Assembly: GCA_032718475.1 (NCBI GenBank)
Contig: JAUCBJ010004773.1
Location: forward strand, 8,932-72,931
Direction: 5' to 3'
Source of the DNA: Nemertoderma westbladi
Lineage: Eukaryota > Animalia > Xenacoelomorpha
DNA length: 64,000 nucleotides
The notes beneath the pieces were generated by a model that ran no database searches, was not told where the DNA came from, and was given only the letters and a program-made list of their open reading frames with translations. Below, in pieces: positions 15,010-61,653 of this stretch. Both the position numbers and the translations under genes were made by a program. Numbering within the stretch: position 1 is the stretch's first letter; the number at the start of each line of letters is the position of its first letter.

Positions 15010-16119
15010 ATGGATATGGATAATGATTTATCTGGAAGCGACGCTGATAAACCACCAGCTCTGCCTCCAAAATTAGGTATCGGTAGGTCAACTAAACAAC
15101 AATGTAGAGTTCTGCTGAATCAACCGCAGGGCATGCATGCTCCACAAGTTCTAACGAATCGAGCCCAAGCGGCCCACGTTCCGCAAGTTCTGGTGAACCA
15201 ATCCCACGCAGCCCACGGTCCACAAGTTCTAACGAACCAACCTCAGCGTCCACAAGATCAACCACGTCAACCCCAGGGACCCTCGGGCTACTGGGTAGGC
15301 CTCCCTCCCTACTCGTCCCCGTTGCGCCGTATCGCAAAACAATCAGAGACGACGAACCAATCCAGTACCGTTACCGGTAGTAAGGGAAGTAAACTCGATA
15401 GTAATATAAACAATGCCGACACGGACAACTACAATCTATACTTACAGGAATATTTACTTATGAACGAATATAAACTGTTGGCGGAGCGAGATATCCCCGG
15501 TATGTATCTCGTCCCGTCGGCTCAGTCGCCATACTGTTGGCACGGCGTGCTGTTTGTTAGGGAAGGCTATTACCGCAGCGGCAAGTTTCGCTTTTCCCTT
15601 TTCATCCCGCGGGATTTCCCGGATGGCGGCGGTGTCCCGCGTCTAGTCTTCGATATCCCCATCTTCCATCCGCGAGTCGATCCAAAAACCGGGGAGTTTT
15701 CCTTGGGGAACGAGTTCCGATCATGGCGTCGGAATGTGAACCACATCCACGATATTGTTGAGTTCACAAGGAGTTCCTTTTACGATATCGATTCAACGAG
15801 TTTCGTGAACGAAAAGGCGACTGATTTATATCGAACTGACCGACGGCAGTTCGACTTTCTTGTCTCCCAATCAGTTCGGTTATCTAACGAACACATCTAC
15901 GAATCGTCTTCCACCACCGATATGAACTTCATTGAGTTCTCTTCACTTTCCACTGATAATCTTTCTACTTACACTAAACTTATGCTGGAATCATCCTGCC
16001 TTCTCAATCAATCCCCTTCCCATTTGGACCCCCACATTCGGGTGCCGAGATATTTGGCTTATCTTCACGAGAAAGCCATCGCTTCTACATCGAACTCCGT
16101 GCGAATTGATTCTAAATAA
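15010..16119 (+). CDS. AKTIP: AKT-interacting protein / FTS (inactive E2 variant, UEV), intronless, with N-terminal 13-aa repeats
   Basis: EYLLMNEY...PGMYLVPS...WHGVLFVREGYY..GKFRF..IP.DFPDG..PRLVFDIPIFHPRVDPKTGE...WRRNVNHI; no catalytic Cys. Confidence 0.9.
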   Translation: MDMDNDLSGSDADKPPALPPKLGIGRSTKQQCRVLLNQPQGMHAPQVLTNRAQAAHVPQVLVNQSHAAHGPQVLTNQPQRPQDQPRQPQGPSGYWVGLPPYSSPLRRIAKQSETTNQSSTVTGSKGSKLDSNINNADTDNYNLYLQEYLLMNEYKLLAERDIPGMYLVPSAQSPYCWHGVLFVREGYYRSGKFRFSLFIPRDFPDGGGVPRLVFDIPIFHPRVDPKTGEFSLGNEFRSWRRNVNHIHDIVEFTRSSFYDIDSTSFVNEKATDLYRTDRRQFDFLVSQSVRLSNEHIYESSSTTDMNFIEFSSLSTDNLSTYTKLMLESSCLLNQSPSHLDPHIRVPRYLAYLHEKAIASTSNSVRIDSK

Positions 16120-19286: not shown

Positions 19287-20618
19287 TTAACCCTCTTTAT
19301 CGTAAAGATCAAGGTTATAATGTTCCCCGTAGACTTGTAAATGTTCGAATAACTCAGACTTTTGCGCTTCCAGATTCTCCGGCAGTTCCTTATAAACGTT
19401 GCTAAACAAATGCGACACTTTGGGTTTACGTTTCGCTTCGCTCTTTGCGAAAGCCTTCATTACCTTCTCTCTGGCTTTCTTCTTCCATACCTCCTCCTGG
19501 TCTTTGCTCCACAACTGGTTATTTAACATGTAGTTCCTTAGACGCGATATGGGATGGTCTGTCTGATCCCAATAGGATACCTCGTCTACAGACCTGTAGG
19601 CCGAAGAGTCATCGCTGGTGCTATGGTGGCCTATCCTGTATGTCATCGCTTCCACCAACACTGGTTTATTCTCCCGCAGACATATCTCTTTGGCAGCTCT
19701 CGACACGTTATACATGGCGAATACGTCATTACCATCAACACGTAAAGTTTGCATTCCGTAGGCTGGGCCTCTCGCCGCCACACCGTCGCTGCGATACTGC
19801 TCGCTGGTGGGCGTGCTGATTGCGTAGCCGTTGTTCCGACACAGAAACACAATCGGGCAGTCCAAAGTCGCTGCAAAGTTCATAGCCGCGTGGGCGTCCC
19901 CTTCGCTAGAGGCGCCTTCTCCGAAGAAACAAACAACCACGTTGGATTTCTTCGCTAATTTATAAGCGTAAGCGACGCCCACAGCTTGCGGCATTTGTGT
20001 GGCAAGCGGGCTCGATATGGTCGCGAAGCCATGTCGAGCCGAGCCGTAATGGACCGGCATCTGATGGCCCTGCCCGAGATCGTCTTTGTTCCCGTAGCAC
20101 TGATCCATAAACATCTCTAGCGGGTAGTCCCGCCACATAAGGACACCAGCCTCCCGGTACTGCCCAAATATAAGATCATCTGTATTCAACGCAGCCGCAG
20201 TGCCAATGTGAGTCGCCTCTTCCCCGTAGTTGGTCATGTAGAAGGAGATCCTCCCCTGTCTTTGCGATTCGTACATTATCCGGTCCATCTGGTTTAGAAG
20301 CGTCATCTTCAGGTACATCTCTATGATGGTTTTGGGTTTGAGTTTAGGGTCGTCGTCACCGACTATTTCTCCCTTTCGGTTCATAACGCGGTAGACGGGG
20401 ATTGTGGAGCTGGACGGATCGATGAACTCGAGTTTACTCGTGAAGGAGGCTCGAGCGCCGAGGAACTGGGGTGTGTCGTCGTCTGCGTAGTGTTCGGCTA
20501 CGGGTGGTTCAGGACTGTAGCGTCGGTGGGGTTGGCGACACATCGGCGTCGCGATGGGAGATAGTCGCCATCGCGAGGAAGGGAGTGCGAATCTATGTAA
20601 CCCGTGGATTAAAACCAT
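19287..20618 (-). CDS. BCKDHA: Branched-chain 2-oxo acid dehydrogenase E1 alpha, mitochondrial; intronless
   Basis: [25 protein letters not shown] motif [17 protein letters not shown]...[14 protein letters not shown] phosphorylation loop; Arg/Ser-rich presequence. Confidence 0.96.
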
Positions 20619-20885
20619 GGTGATTATTACTGTATTACAGTATTACCTGTATACAGATATATAGACCTAGGCCGGTAGGCCTACACTGATCAGCTGATAG
20701 GGATCCTACGCCTACCGCTACAATAATTCCAGCCAGAATTAGTACTGTAACTGTAGTACAAGTACAGTAGTACCGGTACTAAATGTACTACTGTACTGCT
20801 GTAGTACAGTAGTAACAGTAACAGAGTAGTAAGTTCTGAAGTTATCGAATTTCGGCAGTACAGCAGTACCGGTAGGTACTGGCAA

Positions 20886-37068: not shown

Positions 37069-37276
37069 TGCTGGGCTCTAACTGCTGAGGATACCAAATC
37101 TTTGCATGGCACATTCGCAAGAATGCTACGCCGGGTTCACTGTGTCAAGTACAATGTACACATCTCTAACCAGACACTATAAAACATTGGAGGTGTCTCA
37201 TTGGTTCCCCCAAGCTTGACACTAGACAAAGCCGCCTCCGCTTTGCATGACATTGCTTTCGTCATGAGGACCAGCA
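37069..37276 (+). mobile_element. Third, more diverged fragment of the same RTE family
   Basis: tgctgggctctaactgctgagga...ttggttcccccaagcttgacactaga matches 12001-12207 with substitutions. Confidence 0.85.
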
Positions 37277-38500
37277 ACTACTCGTCCGGACAAGATGTTG
37301 TAGCAACAACTCGTCCGGACGAGTTCTTGCTACAACATCTCGTCCGGACGAGTTGTTGCTACAACATTTCGTCCGGACGAGTTGTTGCTACAACAACTCG
37401 TCCGGACGAGATGTACAATGGTATGTAAATATATGTTTATACTGTATGGTAATTTATGAGTGGAGGCCTATTGTAGGTTGTCATCTTAATACCAGATTAG
37501 TGTTGTGTTTAAGGCCATGGTACCACTACCGGTACTACTATGCTGGTAGGGCTAACAAGTTTCTACAGTAGGCCTACTCCAATAAAATACCCTTACCCTA
37601 CCTACAGTATAAAATGTTTGCATAAAACATCTCGTCTGAACAAGTTATTGCTATAACATCTTGTCCGGACGAGTTGTTGTTACAACATCTCGTCCGGACG
37701 AATTGTTGTTACAACATCTCGTCCGGACGAGTTGTTGCTAAAACATCTCGTCCAGACGAGTTGTTCACATACAACATCTCGTCCGGACGAGTTGTTGCTA
37801 AAACATCTCGTCCAGACGAGTTGTTCACATACAACATCTCGTCCGGACGAGTTGTTGCTACAACATCTCGTCCGGACGAGTTGTTGCTACAACAACTCGT
37901 CCGGACGAGATGTACAATGGTATGTAAATATATGTTTATACTGTATGGTAATTTATGAGTGGAGGCCTATTGTAGGTTGTCATCTTAATACCAGATTAGT
38001 GTTGTGTTTAAGGCCATGGTACCACTACCGGTACTACTATGCTGGTAGGGCTAACAAGTTTCTACAGTAGGCCTACTCCAATAAAATACCCTTACCCTAC
38101 CTACAGTATAAAATGTTTGTATAAAACATCTCGTCTGAACGAGTTATTGCTATAACATCTTGTCCGGACGAGTTGTTGTTACAACATCTCGTCCGGACGA
38201 GTTGTTGTTACAACATCTCGTCCGGACGAATTGTTGTTACAACATCTCGTCCGGACGAGTTGTTGCTAAAACATCTCGTCCAGACGAGTTGTTCACATAC
38301 AACATCTCGTCCGGACGAGTTGTTGCTAAAACATCTCGTCCAGACGAGTTGTTCACATACAACATCTCGTCCGGACGAGTTGTTGCTAAAACATCTCGTC
38401 CAGACGAGTTGTTCACATACAACATCTCGTGCGGACGAGTTGTTCACATACAACATCTCGTCCGGACGAGTTGTTCATATACAACATCTCGTCCGGACAT
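37275..38500. repeat. Array of ~29-bp palindromic units (core ctcgtccggacgag) with a 499-bp internal duplication
   Basis: Unit acaacatctcgtccggacgagttgttgct; the spacer starting gagatgtacaatgg occurs at 37408 and 37907. Confidence 0.9.
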
Positions 38501-42187: not shown

Positions 42188-44388
42188 TGTAAAGTCCTCT
42201 ACGGTGGGGGCTATCCTACGGCCTACAAGTCTACTAATATGAAGCTATAGAATATCTCTAACCGTGGAGTCCAGTAGTATACCGCTTACCAGATCCTAGT
42301 AACGATGTATCTTACTATGAGACTCTAGTAATGAAACGGGCTCGTACAGTATCTGACAACAAATCCCAGTCCAGGATATCTAAACAAACAGATACAATAC
42401 ACAAACTACTACTGGCGAGGAGCAGAGCCTGATGTCTATTCTATGTACGTGAGCGGGTCTAATGCCTACGTACTAGACAAAAGGATACCTGTCCTCTAAC
42501 CGGTATGGCAGATGTACAGTTACAGTAACAGACCAAACTCACGGGAAAACAATCCCCGCGCAGCGAATCCTAACTATCACTGACAGTCCTAAATACAGTA
42601 ACTTGCCGCGGTGTGATTTATATGGTTTATATACGAGCTAAGTGGGTTACAGACCTAGCGTTACAATACTGATCTCCCTGTCTGAATCAGTCTAAAAAAG
42701 GTCGTGCCTAATGTAACAATACTGCTGAGCCGAAAACAACAGTTTAATAACGAAAATGAAATACTCCCTTTGCCGTAACTAAATATCAGATCCTAATTTA
42801 CAAATACAGATAAATTCTGCCTAAAGTAATATAAAGTGCGCTATAACTAGTAGAACTCTAAGGGTAAATATGTTTTAGGGCGTGTGTGTGTGGGTGTGTT
42901 ACAATAAAACAATTTTGGTGTATATATTTTCACTAGGTTTTAGTAATTTTCTGACCGAAACGATACCGTGCGCTAGCTACTAAAATAAACTAGTCGCGTT
43001 TTGTAGAACTTTATACTTACAAATGACGTCAAAGCTCTCTCCTTCTTATCCACAACTCAAATGGGCAACCACGGTGTTAGTAACTACACCCGTGATCGGC
43101 ACAAATACCAGATTCTGGTTGTAAGATAAGAAATAGGGGTTAATCGCTACCGTACGTTAGCTGATCTGGTATACAAATTTGATTCTAGAACTTTGTTGCC
43201 GCGGTAGTTAGCAGCAAATACCTATCAGTACGTGGCAAGGCGCGGTAGGATATTAATAAAACCTCCCTAGGCCAAGCGGTGTGCCGGTAGCAGAAATACT
43301 CCTTGCCTGATCAAATAACTAACTTCAGGCAGGGGGGGGGGGGGGGGGGGGGGGGTACTAATGTATGTTCTACAAAGCGAACCGGTACCAAACAGTCAGT
43401 GCTAACAAATCACTAAATTATGGAACGTATGCTGTCCGTACCTAATATGTACTTGCGCACTGACGAACGGCAATAGTTCGCACCCGTAAGACATACAGGT
43501 AACCCAGGGATTTGCAGGACTGACAAAGGGATTCTGTCTAAATATAATTATTTGATCCTAAATTTTGCGGCGTCCAGGACGGCGTCACGCTTACCCTGAT
43601 CTATAGGTCTTACGGCGGGCAAGGGCGTCGAACAAAGTCTTACCTTCATCGGAAGTCGGGCGCTGCATGGCAAGTTGAGTATTTCGTTGGGCGAAGGGGG
43701 TGCGCGGTCAAATCTAATGTGGGCGCTAGCGTGTTGTGGACATCTTTCCCTTGCGTTGCTGACGGCCTAACGGTCTAGGCTGCCATCTTCCCGATGTTTG
43801 GCTGTCCCAAAGTTGGACCAAAAGAAAACATGTTCAGGAGTTTGCAGTGTATTTACAGTTTAGCAAAGATTTATCAAACAGAATTACAAATAGTTTCAAC
43901 AAGAAACCAACAAAGTATAACGAAATGATTAGTGCATCTAGAGTAGTGAGTTTGAGACAAGTGAAGTAAGTGATAACCGAAGGCAAACCAGCCCTTTATA
44001 TACTAAATCTGGGACATAGAATTCACTAGAACCTTCGAGAGTATTCGATGGCCTCACATTGGAGCAATAAGATATTCCATGCCTTATGATTGGCCTAACT
44101 CATCGTTCGATACTTTGTACGCACCTCATTGGCTTACCAATTTGTACCAAATGAAAATAAATGGCCCCAAAATACAAATTTCCCGACCAAGATTCGAACT
44201 CGTAACCTATGTAATGCAACCAACGCCTTAACCATCTGACCACTACGCCACGAGAGTAACTAGGGGTTTTTATGTATACAAATATGAATAGGCATATTAC
44301 ATTACTGTAACTTAATCAAAGTGCGTCGGATTTTCGAAAGTTTTTACGTTATACTACAAATGCTATTCTATAGTGAAATAATTCATCA
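42188..44388 (-). repeat. 3' LTR (2201 bp)
   Basis: Direct repeat of 59428-61653. Confidence 0.95.
44180..44254 (-). ncRNA. tRNA-derived (SINE-head-like) Pol III A/B-box cassette in the 3' LTR
   Basis: Minus strand GGCGTAGTGGTCAGATGGTTAAGGCGTTGG...CGAGTTCGAATCTTG; no proper acceptor or anticodon stem. Confidence 0.55.
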
Positions 44389-45080
44389 CCGCTCCATGAA
44401 AACAGTAAGTAAGACTGTTTTCACCAATCGAAATACAAAACTATTTACAAACTACTTCTAAATCTACTGGTGGGGCCTAAAATATAAAATAATCACTATC
44501 TAATTATTGCATACTTAATATTGCAGGTACAGCGTAAATACAATCCATCATACATACAAAATACAAATTTACCAATTAACTTTAGTGCCTAAAATACAAA
44601 AAAGGCTTTCGGTTATCAAGATAAACAAATTAAACAAATCAGAACAAAATAAATCAAAACGAATCGAACAAATAATTGCAACTCTTTCAATAAATCTTTA
44701 TATATTGTAAATATACATAATAAACTTCCACCAAATTAAATCAGTCCAAATATAAAATAAACATAAGGCGCTAAAATCTTTCAAATAAGTCTTAAAGTGT
44801 CCTCCTGACGATCTAAATAGTTCGTCCTGCTGGTCTGGATGTCTTCTCCTGAGCACTAATTGCTAACGGTAGGCTCGCAAGCCTTCCTTCTCTATCTCGC
44901 TCCTCCAAAACCAACATTCAATATAGATACCCAAATATAATATCCAAACATAAAATATCCAATGTAAATATCCAAATATAAAATATCCAATATAAAAATC
45001 CAATATAACATCCAAATAAAATATCTGAATATAAATATCCAAATCGGTAGGCTCGCAAGCCTTCCTTTCTTCTCGCTTTC

Positions 45081-48000
45081 CTAATCCTTGGCTGATCGGG
45101 CTCGTCCACGTCCTCTAATGCGACTGGGTGGTGGTCGAGATCGAACTGGACTCGGACTTCGGTGTCGAGTTGTAGGTGGTTCCAAAATGCTAGGAAAGGG
45201 GACGACGGGAGTCTCGCACATCCGTCGTGCGCTCAGTCCTCTAAATCCTCGTCCGATTCCAACTGTCGGCTTAACGTCGGATCGAGTTTCTACAACGCTG
45301 GGAGGAAGTTGAAAGGGTAGGACCGTTCCGTCCGTTGACACCTTGCTCTCTGACGTCGTTTGAATCCTAATGGGTTCCGGCAAAGCCTATCCTGTCCCTC
45401 CGCGTGGTTCTCTAGCGAGGGAAACTGTGCCCCGAGTCATCCGGATTTGCGACTTCGATGTCGTCCTCTCGGCGACATTTACTACTTTCTTTATCTCTTG
45501 TCCGGCCTTTTGGGCTCTGAGTATACGAAGTTGCGGATCATCCTGTGGGTGACGTGTCTTTTCAGCTAACGGCGTGGCCTTGAAGCCAGTCTCACGCAAA
45601 ACGTCGGTCTCGTCTAGAATGCACGAGGTTACGCGTTTGTGATAAAATGCGCTCCTGTATGCCCAAGCTATCGAATGCCAAGCTCCTCGATTCCGCTGTT
45701 CAACTCGCAATTTGTCGAATTCTCCGGCGGTAATCTTGTTCACCACAGTTTGAAAGTTCCAAGTATTCTTGTTGTCGGGGTGTACCTGTAGAAAGTAGTC
45801 CCGCACAACTTTAAATCCGCTATCCAGTGGCAATATATCCAGCACCTCCAGAAGTTTGTCGTACTGAGGCATAGCCGAAACGTATCCTTCCTTCGACATT
45901 ATGAGAGGGTTTACGGCCCAAAATCCCAAGTGGGCTCTCATAGGAAAACGGTGTCGCTGCGTTGATACATGCTCGTCTGCTAGATTCTCCCAATGGTCGA
46001 ATAGCTGTCGAACGATTTTAACTGACATATGCTCATAGGGAACATCCCTAAGTTGACATTCGGACGCCCTATGGCCTTTAATATTGCAATATGTGCACTG
46101 CGCCACAAAACGCCAGCAAGTGTAGAAAGTGTGCGAACGCTGATCCCCACACCAGTTGCATACCAAGTCCGGTAGAGATATGTGTTTCGCTCCGCATTTC
46201 TTTGCGTGGTGGCCAGTTGCCCCGCATCTGCCACAAATAGTGTTGACAGGGTACCAAACTCGCTCATAGATAAGATCTCCGATGGGGCGAGCGCTACCGT
46301 CCATGTGATAATTCTCATCATCTGGGTCAGTCGGTATGTTCGTCTCCGTGGGTTGTACACAAACCATGGCATTGCTTTTCTCCAACTCGCGTATCTCAGT
46401 TCGCGTCTTCCTCGGAAGATTCTCCTCTATTTCTATGAGTTGCCGCAACGGTTCGTCTATTAGCGCCAACTCGGTCGGATCCACATCGTCGTGATGGGCG
46501 GTAGGCTCGCGAGCCTTCCAGGATCCTTCCGGGCGTTCGAATTCCGCGTGGTGTTCCCCGTCGTAGGGTACTAACGTTAACATCGACGGTCTGTCGACTA
46601 GGCTTCCCGCGTGAGTGAGATAGACGTCCCTGAAAACGCTAAGTCCCGCTCGCGTGAAAACTTCGCAGTGCGCATCGGTGTTATAAAAGGGTTGGAGAAA
46701 TTGTCGGAATACATCCGTATGCGTCCTTCCTCCGTCGTAAAATGTATGTCCTTCACCGAGACATAACGGATGTCGCTTCAGAGTCCTAGACACAACATCG
46801 GCGATGAAGCAGACGTTGACCGAAGATTCTATCGCCAAGTAATATTGTAAGATTATTCGCGGAGGTGAAGTAATCGCCCAGTACTCGCAACCTTGCCACT
46901 TTAGCTGTGACTCGAACTCGTTTACATCGGGAGTGTCTCCCTCTCCATATACGTCCGTGTATTTGCTCCTCTTACTCTCCTTATAATCCCAACTGAACAT
47001 TAGATATGAGATATAACCCGTCCCAGTTTTTCGCGTGTTATACTCCCTAAAGTATCCTTGCTCGATAGCCCAAAGCAACAATGGTCTAGTATCCACGTAT
47101 GGTGTAGGCAATCGGTCCTCTTCTGTGGGCATCCCTGCAAAGTCGCTAATAAGGTCATCCCATACACCGGATCCGATCTTGACGATGCTTTTGTCTAACA
47201 CAATGTCTCGCACGGCCTTTGGCAACATCCTAGCTTCTATGCTACAAGCCAGGTCCATGGATTTAACTATCCGTTTTATCATCGCGTGTCTTGCGTCGTT
47301 CCTTCTGGCATAGGCATCTTTCTATCGCTTCTTTGTCGGCTGAAAACATGTAACACGCCATCTGGTGCTCTAATCTGTATAGTCTTCGAAGTGAGGCTTT
47401 GCTGGTGGCTTCCTCCTTCATTATCGTAAAACATGTAACCATTCTCCTTCAGAGATCGGCTAGTCACGTCCCAATCGTCGAGTAAATCGTCGGTAGGGTT
47501 CCAAATTCTCCCAATCGACTTTTCATCATCGAAACTAATAGGTTTTCCGGTCCAATTGGTCGCGATGTCGGTATCGGTCTCGAATGTTCCGACTCCGATC
47601 CATAATCGAATCGTTCTCGTCAGATATCCTCGCAAGATACAAGGTGCGATATCCGTCCCCGCGCGATCCACTTCCTTAAAATTCGTAATATGTGGAGGCA
47701 CATTGCGTACGATTTTCTGAACTATTGTTCTACGCAACTCGGCTGACTCTAACACATCACCATAGGTAACCGATGGGAGGAAATCCAGGTTCGAAATGAT
47801 CTCCGGGTGTTCAACTATAGGGATCTCGTAAGTTGTCTCCTTCCGGGTCGGTATACTAATAGGAAAACTAGTTGGTCTCGCAATCGGTACTATCGTTCCA
47901 GCAAAATGGGGTTGAGGTTCTCGCGTCATCTCGACATGAGGTATCTGTAGTCTCTGCGACAAATGCTGAGCAAAGGTGATACTATCGAAGAGCTCGGGTG

Positions 48001-48808
48001 TCATCTCCTTAGGTTCAGTTTGATCGTGGGATATCCAATAGAATGGTAGGCTCGCGAGCCTTCCGCCGAACTCCTCGATCTCGCCTTTCTCGTACGCCTT
48101 GTACACCCTGTAGAGGCTCAAAGCTTCCCGTTTCTCTTGCGTCGACTTATTAGATTTGTCCACTACCATGCTGTAGACATCTGGTTCGACTAATTTAGGT
48201 TCGTTAATAACGATCCCACCCGCGTTCGCTCCACTCATTTTAAACGAATGATACGGATTTGTCAAAGGGTATCCGCCTTCTTGGTAACGTAGACTTTGGT
48301 GGTATGAGCATCGCGCTAATATCGGCTCGGGGTTCTCCGAGTTCAACCGTATAGGAATCGCGTTGTCTTGCTCACGCATACACGCTCCACATTTATAAAA
48401 CAGTTTGTATATGGAGAACGCGTCCTTGGTCTCTGGATCCGCTCCTCGAGCGCGTCTATAAAGATGCATTCCTTCAAATTCGTCTCTGGCTGCAGGTAAG
48501 GGTTCATTTACCGTCAAGTATTGCAGCATATGATATAATCGGCGTATTTCGGTGTCTGGATCCTCGCAAATGTCGCTAGCATTGAACTCCGCGCGTAATT
48601 CCTCCGTTCTTTTGTTATATGCGTCCAATCGTTGTCGCGTAACATTCGGGTCCGCCTTGGATTTAGCGAGCTTGGCTGTACTCCTAGCCATACTCTCCAC
48701 TCCAAACACACTAAAGTTTTTAGCTCCATAACGATTAAATGGCGCCTGATGCTCTTGTTCCTGCGTAAACCCTTGACGTAACTCTTTATAAATCTTCTCC
48801 GCCATCAT
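45081..48808 (-). CDS. Accessory ORF in the env position (about 1240 codons; one frameshift near 47320 and one in-frame TAG at 45387-45389): DEDDy-type 3'-5' exonuclease-like domain, three zinc knuckles, Arg/Ser/Pro-rich tail
   Basis: FYDNEG..TIQI, LPKAVRDIVLDKSIVKIGSGVWDDL, YVDTR, W...LQYYLAIES; CGRCGATGHHAKKC, CNWCGDQRSHTFYTC, CTYCNIKGHRASEC; no signal peptide or TM segment. Confidence 0.7.
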
Positions 48809-49540
48809 ATACGCGTATATATGGTTACATATCGTTACGTTTCTACTAGATGAAACACAAAATAGAGGTTAGATGTGAGGTGACTTAGAGTTTGTCGGCT
48901 TTTGGCTCAACTTTGCTCTAAACCCCAACCCATTTGCCTAATGACTTCGGGTTCGCGTGATTTCGCACTGGCTCCTAATCCAAAAAAATGTGCCGATAAA
49001 AAACGAATTCCGGGTAAACTAGCCGCGAGTCTAAAATACTCACCTTTTAATTTCCCAAACTACATTCCCAAAAGAAAATAATGCAGGCGAGAATTAATTC
49101 GGTCTAAATAATAGTAGACACGACTACGTAGAACAAGGCCGGTTTTCTTTTCCAAAAAAATTTTTCGGTAGGCTCGCAAGCCTTCCATCCGCTCTTGTCA
49201 TCCCCAATTTTAATTTTTATCTAGTTGTATTCTAGAATTCGCATTCACTGGAGAATCATTTTTCTTAAATTTAAATCCAACTAAATGGATTTGTCTAATA
49301 ATTTTTGAAAAATTGTCTCACTTGTGGGTTCCAAGTGGAATTCCATTCCTACTGTACACACAATCCCGCTCCTATGTGATACATAAGGGTACTACCCTCC
49401 ATGTTCACATATAAAGACAATGGAATTCCACCGCTGTCTCTATCTACAGTGAAGAGGATTACAAATGCACATACAGTAATACAAATACTAATTTACTAAA
49501 ATACGGTAGGTCTATGTGGCGGCCAACCAAGGTCCCACAT

Positions 49541-52500
49541 CTATTTACTAATATTGGGTGGAGATTTGTAGTCTCCTGTCTCGTTTCTAGTCTCCTCAAG
49601 GAGCACGAGACGTTGTACAGGTCTGTCTACGGTACGACCGTCGATAGTCCTTACAGTAACTGTCCTCACTACACCAGATGTAGGGTGCGTGGTCAAAATG
49701 ACTCCAGTCAGCCAAAACCGTCTTTTCAGATTGGCTTCAGCCAATAAAACATGGTCACCACGTCTTAAACATCGGGTATTAAGATACCAAGAGGTTCTGG
49801 TCAAAATAGAGGGCAAATAATATTTCTGCCATATTTCCCAGAATTTATTTGCAAGCAATTGAGTGGTTTTCCAAGCCTCGTTGCCGTATCCGTCGCTATC
49901 AACGGGTACCGAAATGGGCAACAATGTCGTCGGCGCCTGCATAAGCAGGTGCGCTGGTGTCAAGGCAAACTGTGCATCGTTATTGTCTGGGATCAAAGCG
50001 ATCAGTCTAGTGTTCAAAATCGCTTCAATTTCTATTAACAACGTCGTCAGTTGGTCGTCTGTCAGTATGTGTTGCGTCGGTACGACTTTAGCCATAGCTG
50101 TTTTAATTGAACCAATCAGTCTTTCCCAAACGCCGCCTCTCCACGGACTGTCTGGAGTATTGAAATACCAAACAATACGGTGAGGACGTAGTTCCTCAGA
50201 AATCTGGTTTTTGTCCAACTTTCTCAAAGCTCTGGTTATCTCGTTCCGTGCACCCACAAAGTTTGTCCCTTGGTCGCAGTAAATGGATTTGACCAATCCA
50301 CGTCTAGCGATAAATCGCCGTAAGGCTAGGATAAAGGCATTGGTGGTCAAATCTGTCACTCGCTCTATATGGACAGCTCTGCTGGCCATGCAAGTGAAGA
50401 TCAGTCCCCAACGTTTTACCTGTACCCTTCCGCGTTTCGCGATTATGGGTCCAAAACAGTCTATCCCTGTCTCAGTGAAAGGGGGTCTAAATGCCTGTAA
50501 TCTTGCTAGTGGTAGTTCACTCATTTCTTGGTGTCCTATCCTCGCGTGCACCTTCTTACAAATCATACAGTTCCGTGTTACCGAACTCAGTGCCTTACTA
50601 GGTCTAATCAGTACAAACCTGGAGCGTAAGTGTGATAGACAGTGGTGTCTACCCACATGTTTGAGTTGTACATGTGCGTCCAGTATCATAGCGCGCTGTA
50701 ATTCATGGTGTTGCGGTATGATGATAGGATACCTAAAGTCAAGTGCAAAGTCAATGTTTTGGAGTCTGGACTTGTGACAAAGTAAGCCCCGGTAAATAAT
50801 CGGACTCCAACTCAAAATCGGTGAAGACTTAATCTGTTTACCTTGGTTGATCGCTGTGAACTCTCGTGCGAAATATCGCAATTGATAATGTCTAATGATA
50901 TCAACTTCACAATGGCCAACTTCCTTTAAGGTAAGTCTTCTAGGAAAGTCGCATTTGCCTCTGGCATATTGTCTCAAACGTTTGAGCCATGCTAACTTGC
51001 GGCACGCGTCAGTCCATGATCTAGTTAGGTTCACTATCCTGTCAACGTAAGTGTTAGTGACGTCATCAGGTAAGGTATAGTCATAGTGTGGATACTTGTC
51101 TGGACTTGGTAGGCCCACGGGCCTTCCGGTAGGTTTGTCTGAGTCCCCAAGTACGTCAATCTCTACGGTCTTACCTTTACCGTCGCTCCTAATGTGTCGA
51201 CTGGCAGTAACGGTTTCAACTCTACAGTGTCAGTGTGTTCCTGTGAGCCTGTAAGCTTCCTAACCTTAGTCACACGTTTACCTGTAGGTGGTAAGTCAAG
51301 TACTTTCTTTGAGCGGAGTGTGATCGCTGTGGCCACACCTTTGTCGTCCAAAGAAGTCAAATTCGGTAAGTTTCTAAATGTCCGCTCCAATGGGTCTTCT
51401 AGTGGAGTGTCTAGTAGACAGTCTGGTGAAGCGTCCGGTGAACAGTCTGGTGAGACGTCTGGTGAGACATAGCGCGGAACTTCCAGCGAAATGTCCTGTC
51501 GTCGGTCCCAAGGTCTGTCTGGCATATCTTCTGTCAGAAAGTCTGGTCCAAAGTCTGGTGGACAGTCTGTCGAGATGTCTGGTGGAAAGTCTGGTGAGAC
51601 GTCCGGTAGACATTCTGTCGAGAGTTCCATCAAACAGTCTGGCGAACAATCCGGAGAACAATCTGGTGTCGCTTCTGGTGAATAATCTGGCGAGTAATCT
51701 GGTGAACAATCCGGCGAAACGTCTGGTGAAATCTCCCGCGGAACATCCGGTGAAGGATTCGTACAAGCGTCTGGTCGAGTGTCTGGTGAGACATCTGGCG
51801 TAATGTCAGGTCTGGCGTCTAGGTCATCAGATTTCGTCCGTCCTTGTTTCCTCTTGACCTTGGTGTTGGCTTTCGCTTTGGACTTGACAACCTTGTTGAT
51901 TTTTATCTCGGCACCCTCTGGTATGGTATTGGTTGTCGCGTCGAATAACGGTGGCCATTCGTCTGATGGTCGCTGTAGGAAATCGGGTCCTCTAAACCAA
52001 AAGGATTTATTGTCCGGTTTACAAAAGTCAAGCGGTTGCATCCCCCGTGACGCGATGTCAGCTGGGTTCAGCTTCCCTGGACAGTGACGCCAATCTTGTT
52101 TGAGCGACCGGTCTAATATTTCAGCCCGTCTGTTGGCTACGAGAGTCTTGAACTCAAACGCTTTGTTGTTTATGTACCAAAGTACCAACGTCGCATCCGT
52201 CCAATATGTGACCTTCAAGTTAGCCTCCAGCTCGCGTTGAACTAGACTGACAATATTGGTGGATATCGTCCCGGCTTGCAGCTCCCCACGAGGTACAGTC
52301 ATATACTTCAATGGCATTGTTCTAGCTCTTGAAGTAACGAGAGACACTTCGTAGCTGTCCGATGTCACTTGTCGTCTAAGGTACAAAGTAACCCCCAATC
52401 TATCCTTGCTAGCGTCACTAAAGCTGTGAAGCTCTAAATCGTCTGGAAAGGTGGTTTGCAAAGGAAAGTATACCCTCGGTATGGTATAGTCTTGTAGGAA

Positions 52501-55500
52501 CGTCAGTTGGGCTTCCCAGTCCCTCCATTGCTCAGCTAACTTTTCTGGGATGGGATCGTCCCATTCCAGTCCGGCTTGCCAAATGCTGCGGAGTATGATC
52601 CTAGCATGTAGGATCACTGGACTAATGAAACACAATGGGTCATACAATCGACTCATGGTCGATAAGCAAGTCCTCTTAGTGAGAGGTCTAGTCTGGTTGT
52701 TGGACCTTACACGTACCCTAAAATTGTCGGTGTTAGGGTCCCAACTAAGTCCTAATACTTTGGTCGTCGGCAGAGGTTCTAGGTCTAAGTCTAAGTCACC
52801 TCCACTGCGATCCGTCGGGTCAAATGAGTTCACCAGTTCGGGTTCGTTGGAAGCGAACTTCGTCAAGTGAAATCCGCCCTCAGCGAGACAATCCTGGAGT
52901 TGGTGTGCTACAGTTGTAGCGCGCTCCAAGGTGTCACAACTCTTGAGGCCGTCATCCACGTAGAAATCTCATTCCACTGTCCGAACTACTTCTGGGTCAA
53001 ATTGGTCTCGTCTGTCCAATGCGGTCTGCTTTAAGGCGTACATGGTGCAGTTGGGGCTGTCCCTGGCTCCAAATACTCTTACCTGCATTTGGTAAGTTTC
53101 TGGCGGAAGTTCTAAGTTTCCGTCCGGATACCAAAGAAACCTCAAGCTGTCCCTGTCCCGCTCCAAAGCCTTAACCTGGTGAAACATGGCCTCTACGTCA
53201 CAGGTGAAAGCCACTTTGCGTTGTCTAAAACGCATTAGGACTCCCATGAGGTAATTGTTCATATTCGGCCCGTCCATCAGTTCGCTGTTCATAGACATCC
53301 CTTGGTAAAGCGCAGCGCAGTTGTTGACTACACGCACCTTGCCAGGTTTGTCCGGGTGTCGCACAAAATGATGTGGCAGGTAATATGTCTGGTCTGTGGT
53401 TACCTCGGGATTTAACATCCTAATGGCGTATCCCTTTTGGAGATACGTCTGAAGTTGTGCATTGTATTGCATATGGGCCGTCTCGTCTCGCAACAATCGC
53501 TGCCTTATTGATTTGAGTCGCCTCAAAGCAAGCGGGTAATTGTTAACGAGTTTAGGTTGTCCATTGCGCCACCACATACCAACCTCATAGTGGCCATTCG
53601 CGGTCTGGCGAATGGTATCTCTCATAATATTTAATGACCGTTTTTCCTGTTCTGACATAGCGGTCTCGTAACTACCGGGTTCTGCTGAGTCCTGTTCCAA
53701 CCATTGAATGGTCCGTTCAGTCAGCAGTCGGTCAAGCGCTGCTTGCACTGCGCCATGGTCCTCGTCCACGTCTTCGTTCGCTGCGGTGGCTAGTGTCAAT
53801 GCATCTGGTAGGCTCGCAAGCCTTCCGGTGTCACTAGTCGGCGTCGAATTGTCGTGCGGCGGTTTGACAACTTCTTGATCTATCGATAGGCTTGCAAGCC
53901 TTCCAAGATCAATGACCGGTGTCGAAGCCTGGTGGGTGGGGTCAATGACCTTTGGATTTTTCGGTAGGCTCGCAAGCCTTCCAAAATCCTCGTTCATCGA
54001 GTCATCCACAGCAACAACCCTTTGGTCTTCGGTAGTCAATACAACCTGGTTTACTGCAAGTAGTTGTAAGTCAGAGGTCCGTGTGGTCGTGTCCAGATCA
54101 GTTACGTCAGTATCGGTGGCGTCTGCGTTAGCGACGCAAGTCTGTCGTAGTGCCGTCCGTACAATTGGACCACGGGAGTGTGAAGGAGAGTTATCTATCG
54201 TAGTAGTCAATAAACTACACGTACTCAAAACGTCGTCCTCCTGGTCACTTACCTCTAGTGAACGTATTGGTGCTCTAGTATACCAACCTATGGGAGTTCT
54301 ACATGCGTAGGGGTTGCCCGCTGTAATAACAGATGGGCGTGTCTCCCATACCTGATGTAGGTTAAACTGGTCTGTCCCAATTAACATCGCAATGGAACGA
54401 TAATTAACAGGACATTCCGGTATTCCAAGGTGTCGGAAATACTTACGATCTTCCGGTGATTGCTCTGGCACAGGGCCGAGCAAGTTACTAAAGTCCTTCG
54501 TAGCTGCAAAGGTCAAATTTCTTACCGGAAGTAATGAGCGCTCCTCCTTGCTGTGTTCCGCTTTGGAAAGAAGAGTGTCTAAGGTTAGTTTTACTCTTGT
54601 CACAGGGATCGCTCTCTTACCATGCATGCTGCTTACAGTATACTGAGCAGTCTTACCTTGACTCATGTCCGTAACCACGTCGGCTACTTGTTCGTCGACA
54701 TAACTGTGTGATGACGCAGAGTCTAAGATAGCGTATATATGCTTGCTCCCTCGGGTTCCGGTAATCTTTATAGGAATCAAGCTAAACCCGTTCAATTGGT
54801 TCTGTGTGAGGAGCGTTACCGATGGTTGTTCCTCACCTGCATGCACGTAGAAAGTGTCGTCTTCCTCCTCGTCCTCGTCCGATGATCCTGACTGATCCAT
54901 ACAGTCCGTGTAAAACGTACGGATCTCGCGCGGCGCACGCTCTTTATATAATGCGTCGCATCTAGCCGCTTTATCTGGATGCTCTCGTCGAAAGCGTTTG
55001 GTCGGAGTATGACTGGTGGTGTGGAGTAACGCGTCATGGTTACGTCTACACTGAGGACATGTATCGTCGCTAGGGCAATCCTTCCGGACGTGTCCTGGCT
55101 TCATACATCTCCAGCAGGAATCTAATGATCGAATTTGGAGTCTTCTCTCTTCGATTCCTAACTCTTTAAAAGCGCGACATCCACGAAGTTTATGTCTGCT
55201 GTAGTTTCTGCCGTTCCGCTCGAAGTATGAGCATCCCACAAAGTCCGCCGGCAACTGTTGTCGTGGCTGCGTGGTGCTGATAGGCGTCAGAACTTTAGAA
55301 GTCTCGGTAGGGGTGGCGTAGGTAACGGCTTTCGCGTTCGTCGGAGACGGTTTAGTCCGATTCGGCGCAGAAATAGCTATCCCTTCTGCCGCGATATGGT
55401 GATCGGTGTAATTCGATCGAGTCTCGATCACGGCCTCCCGCGAAATCAGTTGATAGACGTCGGTGAGTTTTAATAGCCCGCCGGCCTCTTCACGCTGGTA

Positions 55501-58391
55501 CTCGATGCGTCGCCATTCTTGTCGGAGTCGATGATGAAGTCGACCGATTATCCTGATGAGAACCGTCGGTGCATTAGCGTACTCGAGTTGTCCAATGGAC
55601 CGTAAAGTCCCTATAGCGTTCTTGATTTCGTCCGCGAGTCGTAGAAGATCAATCGGTTTCGAAATGCTGCCTCCTCTGCAGAGGTCTTCGATAATGGATT
55701 TAGCCATGGCGACGTTACCTCCGTAAATCGAATATAAACGGTCGTACGCCAACTCAAAGGCATCGGGAACACCAATGAAGGTTTCTGCTAATCGTTTCGG
55801 CTCACCAGACAGGACTTGGAGCAAGTAATTAAACTTCTCCGTCGAGGTGAAAGCACACTTAGCGATCTGGGACTCTACGTAGTCTACCAGTGTGCGCCAG
55901 TGTTTCGCGTTGCCAGAGAACTTCGGCGGTTGCTGTGCCGGTAATCCATGTCTAGCCGCGAATTTCGCAATCTCGCTAACCAAATCCAACTGTCCGCGTC
56001 CCTGTTCGGTGGCGTCGTCCAGTTGTTCCCTTCCACGTGTTGTTCGGCGGTAAGAATTATTAACGGGATCTTCTTCTCGATGTGTCGGAATCTGTCTAGT
56101 CTCCTGTTCTCGCCTTGGTAGTCGATGTTGTCTAGGTTGTTCTAACTCCACGCTGGTTCGTGATCGATCCGATGGTTGCGTTTCGAGTCGCTCTTCTATC
56201 TGAGCTAGTCAGTCCGTTACAGGTCGCATTATTTCGGCGAGTCTGTTGGTGCTGATCGCTTCCGCTGGTTGCAACGTGGGTTTCTGCAAAGGTGTTTCTC
56301 GTGGAGGATTATCGATGTAGGGGTTTGTCGATCGTTCTTCCCGTTTGTAATCCGCTGTCTCTGCCGCTCCAGTACGGAATATTTCCCGTTCCGTCGACTC
56401 CGAGTCACTGGATGAGTCGCTGTCATTCGGATAAGGTGGCTGGCGGTTTTGCGTCCGGCGTATTACTTTTGGTCTCGTTCGCTGAGGTCTAGAATCTACG
56501 GTTCTCCGTCGTTCGGTAGGCTTGCAAGCCTTCCATGAAGTCGTAGGTCTCGTTATACGTTGTTCGATCCTGTGGGTACTACCCACATCCATCCTCCTCC
56601 GTAGTTCGGTAGGCTCGCAAGCCTTCCACGAAGTCGTAGGTTGCGTCGAACATTGTGTCAAAGGTCGAGTGAAATAGTCGGGTTTCGTAGTCGGTCTATA
56701 AATAACTGGGTTCGCACAGCACATCACAGGTTTAACTTGTAATGGTTTACTCACCTGTTTAATTGTCATAAACGCAGGTTCCTCTCTTCCTACAAGTAGA
56801 CTACGACTTACTGTAGGTGGACTAGTTATGTTACCTGCTAAAATTGGCGATGAAGTCGCCCTAGGTTGTGGTATTTCCGTCACAACAAACCTGTTGCCTT
56901 GCGTGGAACGCACAGGCGTTATTTCCTTAGGTTTCGTAACAAAGACCGGTTTTATCGAAGTCGTGGGTTTGAGCATAGGAATAACTTGGGAAAACGTTTA
57001 CAGTAATCCTCGACGAACTCCTCTCCTCGATCTATCGCTCCCACACTTCCTTCTTCGATTCGCTTCTGAATTCCGCGATATCGAGCTTCCATGCGATCCA
57101 GGGCAGACAAGTCGTGTCCAGCTCGCGATCTTATAGATCTATCTCTCGCGTCGAGTTCAAGGTCCGCTTGCGCGTTCGCTGCCTCGCGCGATCTACGATT
57201 CAGCTCGAACTGTAGTCGCATCTCCCTTTCGCGTCGATCCGCTACTTGTTGTTGTGCCGCTAACTCCGCTTCCTGTATAGCTAAACGAGTGTTTATTTGT
57301 CGCGCCTCCAACTTGGCGCGAGCGTCGGATGCTGCTTTCTTCTGTGCTAATTCGTCGGCTGCCGCCGCCGTGGCTGCTTCTTGCGCTAAGTCTTCCTCCA
57401 GTCTCCTCATCTCTGAGGATTCTAATTCGGCTTGCGCCTTGAGTTGCGCAATTCTCGCCTCATCCTCTCTATGTTGTTTCTCTCCCTCAATGGCGATCTG
57501 TGCCATCCTCTGTTGCGCTTATTCCTCGACGACTTGTTGTCGGCGTGCAACCTCCTGCTGTTGTCGAGTAATTACAGACGCTGTTCTACTCACGTCGCCA
57601 ACGTCACTCCGTACACTAATGAACGATCTATCCAGTGGTGGAATTTGGTAGGCTCGCGAGCTTTCCGTAGTAAGAACTTCCGTCATCCCTCGCGGTTCGA
57701 CTTCCGGTTCTTCGATCGGTACGCCGCTTCTACGAAGAAAATTGGTGAGCGTCTCTAACCTCCCGTCCAGTCAGTAGAGTTCTTCTTCCTCTTCGGGTTG
57801 TAACAACGCGTCCGAAACTGACTCACCTAGCAGTTGGTCGAACTGCTCCTGTTGAGCCAATCTTATTACTGACTTAAACTGAATAAGGCTTTCTCTCGCA
57901 CTTACCAACTTGTCTATTATCTTTACCTGAGTAAAGTTGTCGCCACGCAACTCTGCAAGTTCGTGTAAACCTTTCAGTTTATCTAGGGAGGCATGTACCC
58001 TACTTTCTATCCTTAACTGTAAGGTGTAGAACTCGTATCTCGACATCGGGGCGGTTAACTCGCGTAAAACGCGAAAACCTTCTCCGAGGTTCCGAGTAAT
58101 CTGGGCCATGTGTCCTCCTATACTCCTAATAACGTTCTCCTGGCTTCCAGTCGAACTTACCATGTCCGGTTCCCGCGATCTGGTCTGCGGGATGGTAAGG
58201 AAATCTTCGATTATGCCGTCGCCACGCGTTGCGGCTTCCGGTATTTCCGTTCGGGGTACCGGCGACGCACATGGTGTGACATCGGTGGAATCTCGGGTTC
58301 TCCTTCTCGGTTCGTCTACTGTCGATCTGTCCGGGTCGCACGAGTCATAGTCGGTAGGTGGGTATCGAGTCGAATGGGGTGTGTCACGCAT
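49541..58391 (-). pseudogene. BEL/Pao gag-pol polyprotein (about 2950 codons) disrupted by four in-frame stops and two frameshifts
   Basis: Gag PPKFSG..EKFNYL, CWRCMKPGHVRKDC, CPQCRRNHDALLH; protease AILDSAS; RT YLPHH, DVEAMFHQV, FGARDSP, *DFYVDD; RNase H FSDAS, PRGELQA, NPADIASRG; integrase HHCC, GIDCFGP, DQGTNF, GGVWERL, LTPAHLL. Confidence 0.93.
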
Positions 58392-59427
58392 GTCTTATTA
58401 TATACGTCAAGTACGGGTAATAAAATGTCAAAGTATCTGAATGTTGAAATGTCAAACTTACCTTGGTATATATAGTATATATATACCCTAACCGGTACAA
58501 ATAAATCAACAAAGTCAGAATGTCGAAATGTCAAAATGTCGAAATGTCGAAATGTCCAAATGTCAAACTTACCTTGATATATATATATATCATATATATA
58601 CCCTAACTGGTACAAATAAATCTAACAAAGTATATAATAAAATAAGTAATAATCTAGCCTACCGGCTAAATTTGTACGAATAAATGAGATAACGGTATAC
58701 GTTACCAAAATGTAGATCAACAAGTACAAATAATAGGCAAAACAGCAACGTCTAACGGGAAAATAAGTACCAACAACACTACTAATAGACAGTGAAACCC
58801 ACAAATTTTGAGTACTACTGTGCTTTCTTAAGTTTGAACGACACGAGTCATAAAACTTACGTTCCTTTGATCTTCCAGTCGTGCAAATTCCCAAATACAA
58901 ACCGGATGTGGGTCATTCCGTTATTCGGCGGCGCGGACGAATTTATTGTCTCCCAAACATTGCGAAAAGCGGTCTAATCCTCGAAGCGGTCCAGAAATGA
59001 GTCCTTGAGTCCTGAAAAGTCGAAGGTGAGAGTTTTACTTCTACGCTACGAAAATTCTTCCTAGGTACCGATACAACTTGGTCTTTAAACCCTATGTACC
59101 TTTTCAAGTACCAAATTGTAACACCGCACACACACGGCATAAAACAAATGCTACAAACTAACTATTAGCTAGTCAAATATTAAATACGAAAGTACTAGCT
59201 ACCCTAAAAGCCTACTGAAGCAGGGGACGTTCTACAAATTACTAAATTTACTAACCTTAAATTTTAAATATCTCCTACTTTCAATAGCTAACAATATTTA
59301 TCTACCGTTTGCAAATCGCAACTTGCAAACTAAATAATAAATATACCTCACTGTAAAGTGCGCACGCACTTTACAGAGCGTACATATCTAAACAATACTA
59401 TACACTAATTTATATAGTATGTCTCAC

Positions 59428-61653
59428 TGTAAAGTCCTCTACGGTGGGGGCTATCGTACGGCCTACAAGTCTACTAATATGAAGCTATAGAATATCTCTA
59501 ACCGTGGAGTCCAGTAGTATACCGCTTACCAGATCCTAGTAACGATGTATCTTACTATGAGACTCTAGTAATGAAACGGGCTCGTACAGTATCTGACAAC
59601 AAATCCCAGTCCAGGATATCTAAACAAACAGATACAATACACAAACTACTACTGGCGAGGAGCAGAGCCTGATGTCTATTCTATGTACGTGAGCGGGTCT
59701 AATGCCTACGTACTAGACAAAAGGATACCTGTCCTCTAACCGGTATGGCAGATGTACAGTTACAGTAACAGACCAAACTCACGGGAAAACAATCCCCGCG
59801 CAGCGAATCCTAACTATCGCTGACAGTCCTAAATACCGTAACTTGCCGCGGTGTGATTTATAAGGTTTATATACGAGCTAGGTGGGTTACAGCCCTAGCG
59901 TTACAATACTGATCTCCCTGTCTGAATCAGTCTAAAAAAGGTCGTGCCTAATGTAACAATACTGCTGAGCAGAAAACAACAGTTTAATAACGAAAATGAA
60001 ATACTCCCTTTGCCGTAACTAAATATCAGATCCTAATTTACAAATACAGATAAATTCTGCCTAAAGTAATATAAAGTGCTCTATAACTAGTAGAACTCTA
60101 AGGGTAAATATGTTTTAGGGCGTGTGTGTGTGGGTGTGTTACAATAAAACAATTTTGGTGTATATATTTTCACTAGGTTTTAGTAATTTTCTGACCGAAA
60201 CGATACCGTGCGCTAGCTACTAAAATAAACTAGTCGCGTTTTGTAGAACTTTATACTTACAAATGACGTCAAAGCTCTCTCCTTCTTATCCACAACTCAA
60301 ATGGGCAACCACGGTGTTAGTAACTACACCCGTGATCGGCACAAATACCAGATTCTGGTTGTAAGATAAGAAATAGGGGTTAATCGCTACCGTACGTTAG
60401 CTGATCTGGTATACAAATTTGATTCTAGAACTTTGTTGCCGCGGTAGTTAGCAGCAAATACCTATCAGTACGTGGCAAGGCGCGGTAGTATATTAATAAA
60501 ACCTCCCTAGGCCAAGCGGTGTGCCGGTAGCAGAAATACTCCTTGCCTGATCAAATAACTAACTTCAGGCAGGGGGGTATGTTCTACAAAGCGAACCGGT
60601 ACCAAACAGTCAGTGCTAACAAATCACTAAATTATGGAACGTATGCTGTCCGTACCTAATATGTACTTGCGCACTGACGAACGGCAATAGTTTGCACCCG
60701 TAAGACATACAGGTAACCCAGGGATTTGCAGGACTGACAAAGGGATTCTGCCTAAATATAATTATTTGATCCTAAATTTTGCGGCGTCCAGGACGGCGTC
60801 ACGCTTACCCTGATCTATAGGTCTTACGGCGGGCAAGGGCGTCGAACAAAGTCTTACCTTCCTCGGAAGTCGGGCGCTGCATGGCAAGTTGAGTATTTCG
60901 TTGGGCGAAGGGGGTGCGCGGTCAAATCTAATGTGGGCGCTAGCGTGTTGTGGACATCTTTCCCCTGCGTTGCTGACGGCCTAACGGTCTAGGCTGCCAT
61001 CTTCCCGATGTTTGGCTGTCCCAAAGTTGGACCAAAAGAAAACATGTTCAGGAGTTTGCAGTGTATTTACAGTTTAGCAAAGATTTATCAAACAGAATTA
61101 CAAATAGTTTCAACAAGAAACCAACAAAGTATAACGAAATGATTAGTGCAAGAGTGTAAGTATTGTGGAAGTACAATTGTGATAACCGAAGGCAAACCAG
61201 CCCTTTATATACTAAATCTGGGACATAGAATTCACTAGAACCTTCGAGAGTATTCGATGGCCTCACATTGGAGCAATAAGATATTCCATGACTAGAACCT
61301 TCGAGAGTATTCGATGGCCTCACATTGGAGCAATAAGATATTCCATGCCTTATGATTGGCCTAACTCATCGTTCGATACGTTGTACGCACCTCATTGGCT
61401 TACCAATTTGTACCAAATGAAAATAAATGGCCCCAAAATACAAATTTCCCGACCAAGATTCGAACTCGTAACCTATGTAATGCAACCAACGCCTTAACCA
61501 TCTGACCACTACGCCACGAGAGTAACTAGGGGTTTTATGTATACAAATATGAATAGGCATATTACATTACTGTAACTTAATCAAAGTGCGTCGGATTTTC
61601 GAAAGTTTTTACGTTATACTACAAATGCTATTCTATAGTGAAATAATTCATCA
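59428..61653 (-). repeat. 5' LTR (2226 bp) with an internal 57-bp tandem duplication at 61234-61347
   Basis: Direct repeat of 42188-44388. Confidence 0.95.
61446..61520 (-). ncRNA. tRNA-derived Pol III A/B-box cassette in the 5' LTR
   Basis: Same sequence as 44180-44254. Confidence 0.55.

Follow-up and report, generated by a model that had tools for sequence, protein, structure and literature searches.

A dispersed 20-nt palindrome in a BEL/Pao retrotransposon of Nemertoderma westbladi: candidate pairing sites in the genomic RNA

What keeps one short nucleotide motif in place at a dozen sites along a retrotransposon, in coding and non-coding DNA alike? The question is raised by a 64,000-nt stretch of the xenacoelomorph Nemertoderma westbladi (assembly GCA_032718475.1, contig JAUCBJ010004773.1, positions 8,932 to 72,931 of the forward strand; here called the window, with positions counted from its first letter). 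On its minus strand a BEL/Pao long terminal repeat (LTR) retrotransposon of 19.5 kb runs from 61653 to 42188 and carries all twelve copies of a 20-nt palindrome. The array is real and very likely under selection. We tentatively propose, on the basis of predicted folding, that the palindromes would act as multivalent pairing sites scattered along the element's genomic RNA, through which it would dimerise and be compacted.

A pattern search returned 23 matches, namely the twelve sites named in a preliminary description of this locus and 11 reverse-strand echoes of the palindrome, where 0.26 would be expected by chance and none of 100 shuffles reached the observed number. A covariance model built on the twelve copies scores them at 33.1-39.3 bits, all on the minus strand; the best score elsewhere in the window is 9.5, and the scan found no 13th copy there. 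The earlier statement that the motif keeps a single orientation and spares the LTRs and the host DNA also stands: with up to 4 mismatches allowed, neither LTR contains a match, nor do the 44.5 kb of host DNA. The copies span 12.8 kb. Three clusters are tandem duplicates, and eight clusters are independent of local duplication, in agreement with the original estimate of about eight independent sites.

Read from the 5' end of the element, all on the minus strand, the series opens in the N-terminal extension of Gag with 57647..57666 (ESSRAYQ phase, loop CGCG, one stem mismatch), 56608..56627 (WKACEPT phase, loop UGCG) and the 93-nt duplicate of the latter at 56515..56534 (loop UGCA). The linker between protease and reverse transcriptase (RT) holds 53963..53982 and 53807..53826, both in the GRLASLP phase, and between them 53885..53904, whose two deviations are private to this copy. 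A single copy, 51108..51127, lies in the RNase H-integrase linker; it has the loop CGUG and the only two-sided stem change, U8-A13 to C8-G13. Non-coding DNA between pol and a second gene contains 49167..49186, and the second gene itself contains 48045..48064 (GRLASLP phase, loop CGCG) and, in the interval between its exonuclease-like region and its zinc knuckles, 46500..46519 (WKAREPT phase, loop CGCG). The last two copies, 45046..45065 and 44868..44887, occupy the 3' non-coding region. Between them, at 44888-45045 on the same strand, AT-rich repeats are predicted to form one long hairpin closed by both copies, and contigs in three runs (two studies) link two motif matches through another, apparently shorter, spacer.

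Nine of the twelve copies are thus coding, and 49167, 45046 and 44868 fall outside the element's open reading frames (ORFs). The coding copies use all three reading frames, as had been claimed: GRLASLP is the phase of five (read as GRPVGLP at 51108), WKACEPT of three and ESSRAYQ of one. A profile of 17 full-length BEL proteins covers 54244-56079, 51859-53727 and 49583-51055, and none of the seven gag-pol sites falls within a block; they are confined to the extension of Gag, the protease-RT linker and the RNase H-integrase linker. The eight clusters are spaced 1.1-2.8 kb apart, more evenly than random (P = 0.022, post hoc). The copy nearest the 5' end is 1.76 kb inside the element, within gag, and the 5' leader has none.

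Several observations indicate that the nucleotides of the motif, rather than the peptides they encode, are constrained, as first suggested. Thirteen of the 20 positions are invariant, both A's of the internal mismatch included, and the flanks are unconserved beyond one base on each side. These two letters, A3 and A18, fall on four-fold degenerate codon positions in the commonest (GRLASLP) phase, yet they are A in 12 of 12 copies across three frames. Among local duplicates, four comparisons gave 5 mismatches in 80 positions inside the motif versus 120 in 229 in the flanks, which is a contrast and not a clean p-value. In reads over the three linker copies, family variants at 5% or more occur only in the flanks (53850, 53872, 53874, 53882, 53958 and 53960); inside the copies all rows stay below 4%, apart from two private letters. 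Finally, and with more weight, at least four diverged relatives, 4 found among 18 of 60 loose contig ends, keep the motif next to flanks that match by eye at 24, 22, 21 and 18 of 30 positions, at the sites 44868, 56608, 53807 and 56515, respectively. These are homologous sites with flanks 60-80% identical, where a motif match means that the contig passed the 80% bar. Taken together, the duplicate contrast, the linker polymorphism and the diverged contigs make neutral persistence unlikely.

The same reads correct one detail. The preliminary description held that the copy at 53885 keeps a G.U pair, but its odd letters, 53886 and 53893, are private to this copy: the common letter makes up 100% and 97.8-99.8% of the depth at these positions in three DNA runs, and a single contig of a second organism also carries the common letters at both. 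Neither the G.U pair nor the UGCA loop at 53885 is therefore a selected variant. The preliminary description placed most of the variation in the loop; part of it reflects decay of the 53885 copy, and private CpG decay accounts for one loop variant or more.

What, then, does the sequence do? It was initially described as a hairpin, and it is predicted to fold as one, if a weak one (-7.6 kcal/mol). That description missed the self-complementarity of the loop, and predicted folding prefers a duplex between copies. On the sense RNA the whole 20-mer is palindromic except for a single, symmetric A.A mismatch; in the predicted duplex of two copies, 14 contiguous base pairs are bordered at either end by an A.A mismatch, and two further G-C pairs are added. 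The predicted energy of the sense homodimer is -30.7 kcal/mol, versus -15.2 for two separate hairpins (2 x -7.6). The antisense homodimer of the commonest variant reaches only -22.9 kcal/mol, because the G.U of the sense strand becomes C.A: the common U9 forms a G.U pair on sense RNA and a mispair on the antisense strand. All four loop variants (UGCG, CGCG, UGCA and CGUG) are self-complementary on sense RNA, with pairing in 18 of 18 cells. In all four folded segments holding two or three copies, copy-to-copy pairing has a probability of 0.97-1.0, and the predicted pairing of 48045 with 46500 spans 1.5 kb. Folding thus predicts that copy-to-copy duplexes are favoured over separate hairpins. Two other folds were set aside: a histone stem-loop mimic differs in stem and loop, and a GNRA alternative is broken by 51108.

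Because direct repeats of a palindrome are inverted repeats in RNA, any one site could pair with each of the eleven others or with sites on a second genome. Retroviruses use palindromes of this sort at the dimer-initiation site (DIS), and the oskar palindrome is reportedly a case of palindrome-linked RNA self-association. We propose that each copy would pair with any other, on the same or a second RNA; pairing within one molecule would compact a very long RNA, and pairing between molecules would drive dimerisation and selective co-packaging with RNA of the element's own family. The hairpin would be the monomer state, with Gag knuckles chaperoning the switch from hairpin to duplex, as in retroviral DIS and Ty1 PAL, and the invariant A.A might limit how far the helix extends, or a protein might recognise it. 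We place a little less than even confidence in these modelled pairing sites. A more specific version we regard as possible and somewhat doubtful: the palindromes would form a family-specific code of RNA self-recognition, in which stickers every 1-3 kb zip, condense and co-package the RNA, while the A.A cap shortens the helices and may be read by the exonuclease-knuckle protein. The earlier claim that the motif is multivalent is borne out, and the motif appears specific to this element family.

A number of points weigh against this proposal. Since any palindrome yields a favourable duplex energy, the outcome of folding is already given by the sequence and cannot count as independent proof; chance alone makes a 4-nt loop self-complementary about 1 time in 7, and one or more of the loop variants are the private CpG decay described above. 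Pure pairing should favour U-A over an invariant A.A, which points to a protein reader, and intramolecular pairing could outcompete intermolecular pairing. The covariation argument of the preliminary description is not supported: its score is reached in 225 of 500 shuffles and its two-sided pairs in 121 of 500 (9 distinct rows). The compensatory change at 51108, now the only two-sided stem change left, does keep pairing, but pair counts overall do not exceed those of shuffles, and the change weakens pairing with the other copies (-24.6 versus -30.7). The even cluster spacing was noticed post hoc and is partly forced by domain lengths. As for selection, the duplicate comparison was ungapped, counted 53885 twice and is partly circular, the motif having been chosen as conserved, and the test of family polymorphism is weak, with about 6 sites.

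The main alternative, in essence the one put forward in the preliminary description, is that each copy acts as a small RNA hairpin (GG/CC, A.A, a 5-bp stem and a YGYR loop) read by a protein, either by Gag knuckles, as dispersed packaging signals, or by the likely DEDDy/knuckle protein of the second gene, for export, protection or transport. We consider it rather unlikely; several features favour it. The A.A is invariant in 12 of 12 copies though pairing does not require it, and the change at 51108 preserves that copy's own hairpin and not cross-pairing. The letter pair that immediately flanks the motif is U.G in 6 copies, C.A in 4 and A.G in 2, never Watson-Crick; U.G and C.A are isosteric wobbles, and over independent clusters the outer-pair pattern is 4/0/0/4 (Fisher p = 0.029, post hoc), although CpG decay of an outer C...G pair could yield part of it. 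With 100-nt flanks, five isolated copies are predicted to form their own stem with a probability of 0.54-1.0. On the other hand, the hairpin is weak and loses to the copy-copy duplex once two copies share a folded segment, and the flanks extend the stem no more than permuted flanks do (p = 0.43). By analogy only, Egl senses the number of stem-loops in an RNA, according to part of one report (PMC13186709). Hairpin and duplex readings can also be stages of one process, and a true protein reader would still make this a new cis/trans pair in a retroelement.

The element encodes a candidate for such a reader. The second gene (45387..48808, minus strand), in two pieces in this copy with a frameshift near 47290, begins with about 450 amino acids that contain no recognised fold, followed by an exonuclease-like region spanning the break and then zinc knuckles. 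The gene likely encodes a DEDDy (EXD1/RNase D-type) exonuclease with knuckles, as initially suggested; the knuckles are identified by Pfam, and the exonuclease assignment draws on one homologue and its neighbourhood. A full protein scan with the accessory-gene pieces gave 3 weak matches, of which only P0034 reaches beyond the knuckles (E 4.5e-5 among 1.84 billion proteins); it shares two regions with the second gene, in the same exonuclease-knuckle order. DEDDy exonucleases have the motifs ExoI (D-x-E), ExoII (D) and ExoIII (Y-x3-D) in an RNase H-like fold; of these, motif-like stretches of the second gene align with P0034 for the ExoI-adjacent and ExoII parts. P0034 adjoins PF01612 exonuclease clusters in the Atlas with a score of 0.87, which counts as a lead only. 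Pfam found no exonuclease in the second-gene protein nor in P0034, a word search for homologues found none, the Atlas has no match for the first piece of the gene, a PDB search gave weak matches only, mostly to the knuckles, and both single-sequence fold predictions were unusable (pLDDT 33-34). The exonuclease occurs in none of 28 BEL loci lacking the array, where two weak matches involve the knuckle part only; this co-occurrence fits a protein-read hairpin. In print, we found an accessory ORF of this type only for the bdelloid Juno, Vesta and Athena elements, in the portions of those sources covered. Juno and Vesta are LTR retrotransposons with a DEDDy ORF3 and resemble the present element in having an exonuclease-type accessory gene 3' of pol (parts of PMC5408684). 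Unlike it they are not BEL/Pao, and the present gene is much longer and adds knuckles; the word "hairpin" is not mentioned in the main text of the Juno/Vesta paper. Two runs, from different studies, have contigs that bridge 45211-48273; they represent a derivative that lacks most of the accessory gene and two palindromes.

The palindrome might instead be bound as double-stranded DNA by a dimeric protein of the element's own, which would mark copies of the family or lift their silencing, by analogy with VANC on the VANDAL transposons of Arabidopsis. VANC motifs (PMC5735166) are family-specific, present in many copies, arrayed in one orientation and accompanied by an accessory gene in the element, much as here. 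A single orientation is therefore no proof of a role in RNA, because DNA motifs can be arrayed one way as well. VANC motifs are, however, short (9 nt for VANC21), non-coding, tandem, read at the DNA level and carried by DNA transposons, whereas the present copies form no tandem non-coding arrays: 9 of 12 are coding and none is in an LTR. A 20-bp palindrome with a perfect 14-bp core does have the usual shape of a homodimer site, and a further point in favour is that the first 450 amino acids of the second gene lack a known fold. Yet both LTRs, where the promoter lies, are without sites, the half-sites at 51108 are changed complementarily, the common U9 variant breaks DNA symmetry and not sense-RNA pairing, and the accessory domains identified are of RNA-acting types. 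We judge a DNA site improbable.

Very improbable, finally, is a neutral or selfish palindrome spread by RT template switching and surviving only in tolerant linkers, which accounts for position and orientation (all gag-pol copies are in lineage-specific linkers, three clusters are tandem duplicates, template switching creates direct repeats and so yields one orientation, and selfish palindromes are reportedly found in organelle and bacterial genomes) but not for sharp conservation: the motif's boundaries are sharp and its flanks near background identity, duplicate flanks drifted while the core did not, diverged relatives retain homologous sites, all 12 copies keep the asymmetric letters, neither flipped nor evened out into a perfect palindrome, and keeping twelve direct repeats, which RT normally deletes, is costly.

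How far does the array extend beyond this element? This is an abundant family: in one sequencing run, 18,616 contigs fall on the internal region, 2,242 of them below 90% identity, and the family is present in three studies of one organism and one study of a second, although read or contig depth over the element gives no copy number. In 28 BEL loci of other hosts, several of them fragments and none a close relative, the best covariance-model match has E 0.49 in 285,863 bases; a single 3-mismatch match occurs in 1 of the 28. Dispersed 11-mers occur in 12 of the 28 loci; the eight inspected were longer satellite-type repeats or LTR or element duplicates, and the other four had 1-2 such words. No equivalent repeated hairpin was found in these 28 loci, several of them partial. 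The motif-encoded peptides occur in 0 of 33 BEL homologue proteins. A metagenome scan returned 26 loci with one site each, none with BEL protein similarity, which we take as chance; a pattern scan of viral contigs gave 0 motif matches, and BEL searches in viral contigs confirmed none. Rfam has nothing at gathering score over the window, with one chance match (E 0.13, 25 of 44 bits) away from the sites. The exact 20-mers are absent from the literature searched (about 8.4 million papers, incomplete for subscription papers and Repbase), and within the same limits no such system was found for any retrotransposon, in line with the preliminary description, which knew of none for BEL. The array therefore seems confined to this lineage, as would be expected of a code for self-recognition, with no close relative from another host among those compared. 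The 28 loci compared (L027-L054), which encode BEL/Pao proteins, come from prokaryotic genome bins and are likely eukaryotic contamination of those bins.

The host element is assigned to BEL/Pao (Belpaoviridae) on its domains. Its 5' LTR (59428..61653, minus strand, 2226 nt) and 3' LTR (42188..44388, minus strand, 2201 nt) both have TG...CA ends and are 97.5-99.5% identical in three blocks, and a 5-bp target duplication, CGGGA, flanks the element on both sides. The gag-pol region (49541..58394, minus strand) is split by stops and frameshifts into six ORF pieces in this copy. Its domains follow the order long N-terminal extension, DUF1759 Gag, knuckle, protease, RT, Peptidase_A17/RNase H region, integrase and DUF5641, with Pfam matches to DUF1759, zf-CCHC, Peptidase_A17, Integrase_H2C2 and DUF5641; profile order confirms Gag-PR-RT-RH-IN with BEL-type domains, and a homologue search gave 33 matches at 25-48% identity, 30 of them with PF05380. 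A 12-nt minisatellite at 51383-51811 (minus strand) encodes an (S/C)PD-rich RNase H-integrase linker. Belpaoviridae typically have genomes of 4.2-10 kb and LTRs of 0.2-1.2 kb (PMC8742986), and the present element, at 19.5 kb (about twice that) with 2.2-kb LTRs, lies outside this range. Because the range is only descriptive, classification rests on the domains. The element shares with the family its LTRs, the Gag-PR-RT-RH-IN order and the Pao-type domains, and differs in its size, its 2.2-kb LTRs, the lack of env and the lack of an obvious tRNA primer site directly past the 5' LTR. The bases there, where a site for tRNA-Arg or tRNA-Gly would be expected, do not start with TGG, and the longest complement of the first 20 nt inside the LTR is 8 nt; priming may be unusual. 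At 59330-59427 (minus strand), about 50 nt past the 5' LTR, lies a hairpin in which the final letters of the LTR recur together with the few bases that follow them. Both LTRs also contain, by eye, a tRNA-like stretch (about 44180-44260 and its twin in the 5' LTR), at which ARAGORN called no tRNA gene.

Elsewhere in the window, several host-like intronless ORFs stand among LINE fragments at 8871-29552; by eye, we take 19287-20642 to resemble a branched-chain keto-acid dehydrogenase alpha subunit, 15010-16119 an AKTIP-like protein and 8871-10016 a glycosyltransferase. In host DNA at 37275-38498 a 29-nt palindromic unit is arrayed in both orientations; its sequence bears no relation to that of the 20-mer.

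The locus indicates that a mobile element can carry a 20-nt nucleotide code within protein-coding linkers, in any frame. It offers a natural case under selection, one short motif in twelve copies, of which number, spacing, loop symmetry and mismatch are each separable. The array would bear on how RNA is selected and dimerised in BEL/Pao elements, whose replication is called poorly understood in the ICTV profile (PMC8742986), and on how RNA distinguishes self from non-self, for which a recent in silico study proposes palindromes as a route to homotypic RNA clustering (PMC13079385). The present array shares with that hypothesis the idea that palindromes let RNA tell self from non-self, but the latter concerns cellular mRNAs and germ granules and describes no repeated, conserved multi-copy code in the portion of the paper covered. 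A second parallel (PMC6281560) is the multiple dispersed packaging signals of single-stranded RNA viruses, MS2 and HBV. As in those genomes, many small stem-loops with a common motif lie along the element, inside coding regions, and are proposed to act cooperatively, by analogy only; packaging signals, however, share features of coat-protein recognition and vary in affinity, whereas the copies here are near-identical 20-mers with a self-complementary loop, in a retrotransposon. The closest comparison is with Ty1, whose RNA, in the part of the report covered (PMC6844567), dimerises with the help of Gag through the 5' palindromes PAL1 and PAL2, and with retroviral DIS: in each, parts of an LTR retroelement's genomic RNA are self-complementary and offer a hairpin/duplex alternative, with a knuckle Gag as potential chaperone. 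The present copies are likewise self-complementary on sense RNA and, on energy prediction, would work like DIS or PAL sites, yet do not occupy a 5'-leader location near the primer site. In Ty1 and retroviruses the 5' leader holds a single distinct site or a few of them, whereas the present element carries twelve near-identical copies, none in the leader, mostly in coding sequence and in three frames.

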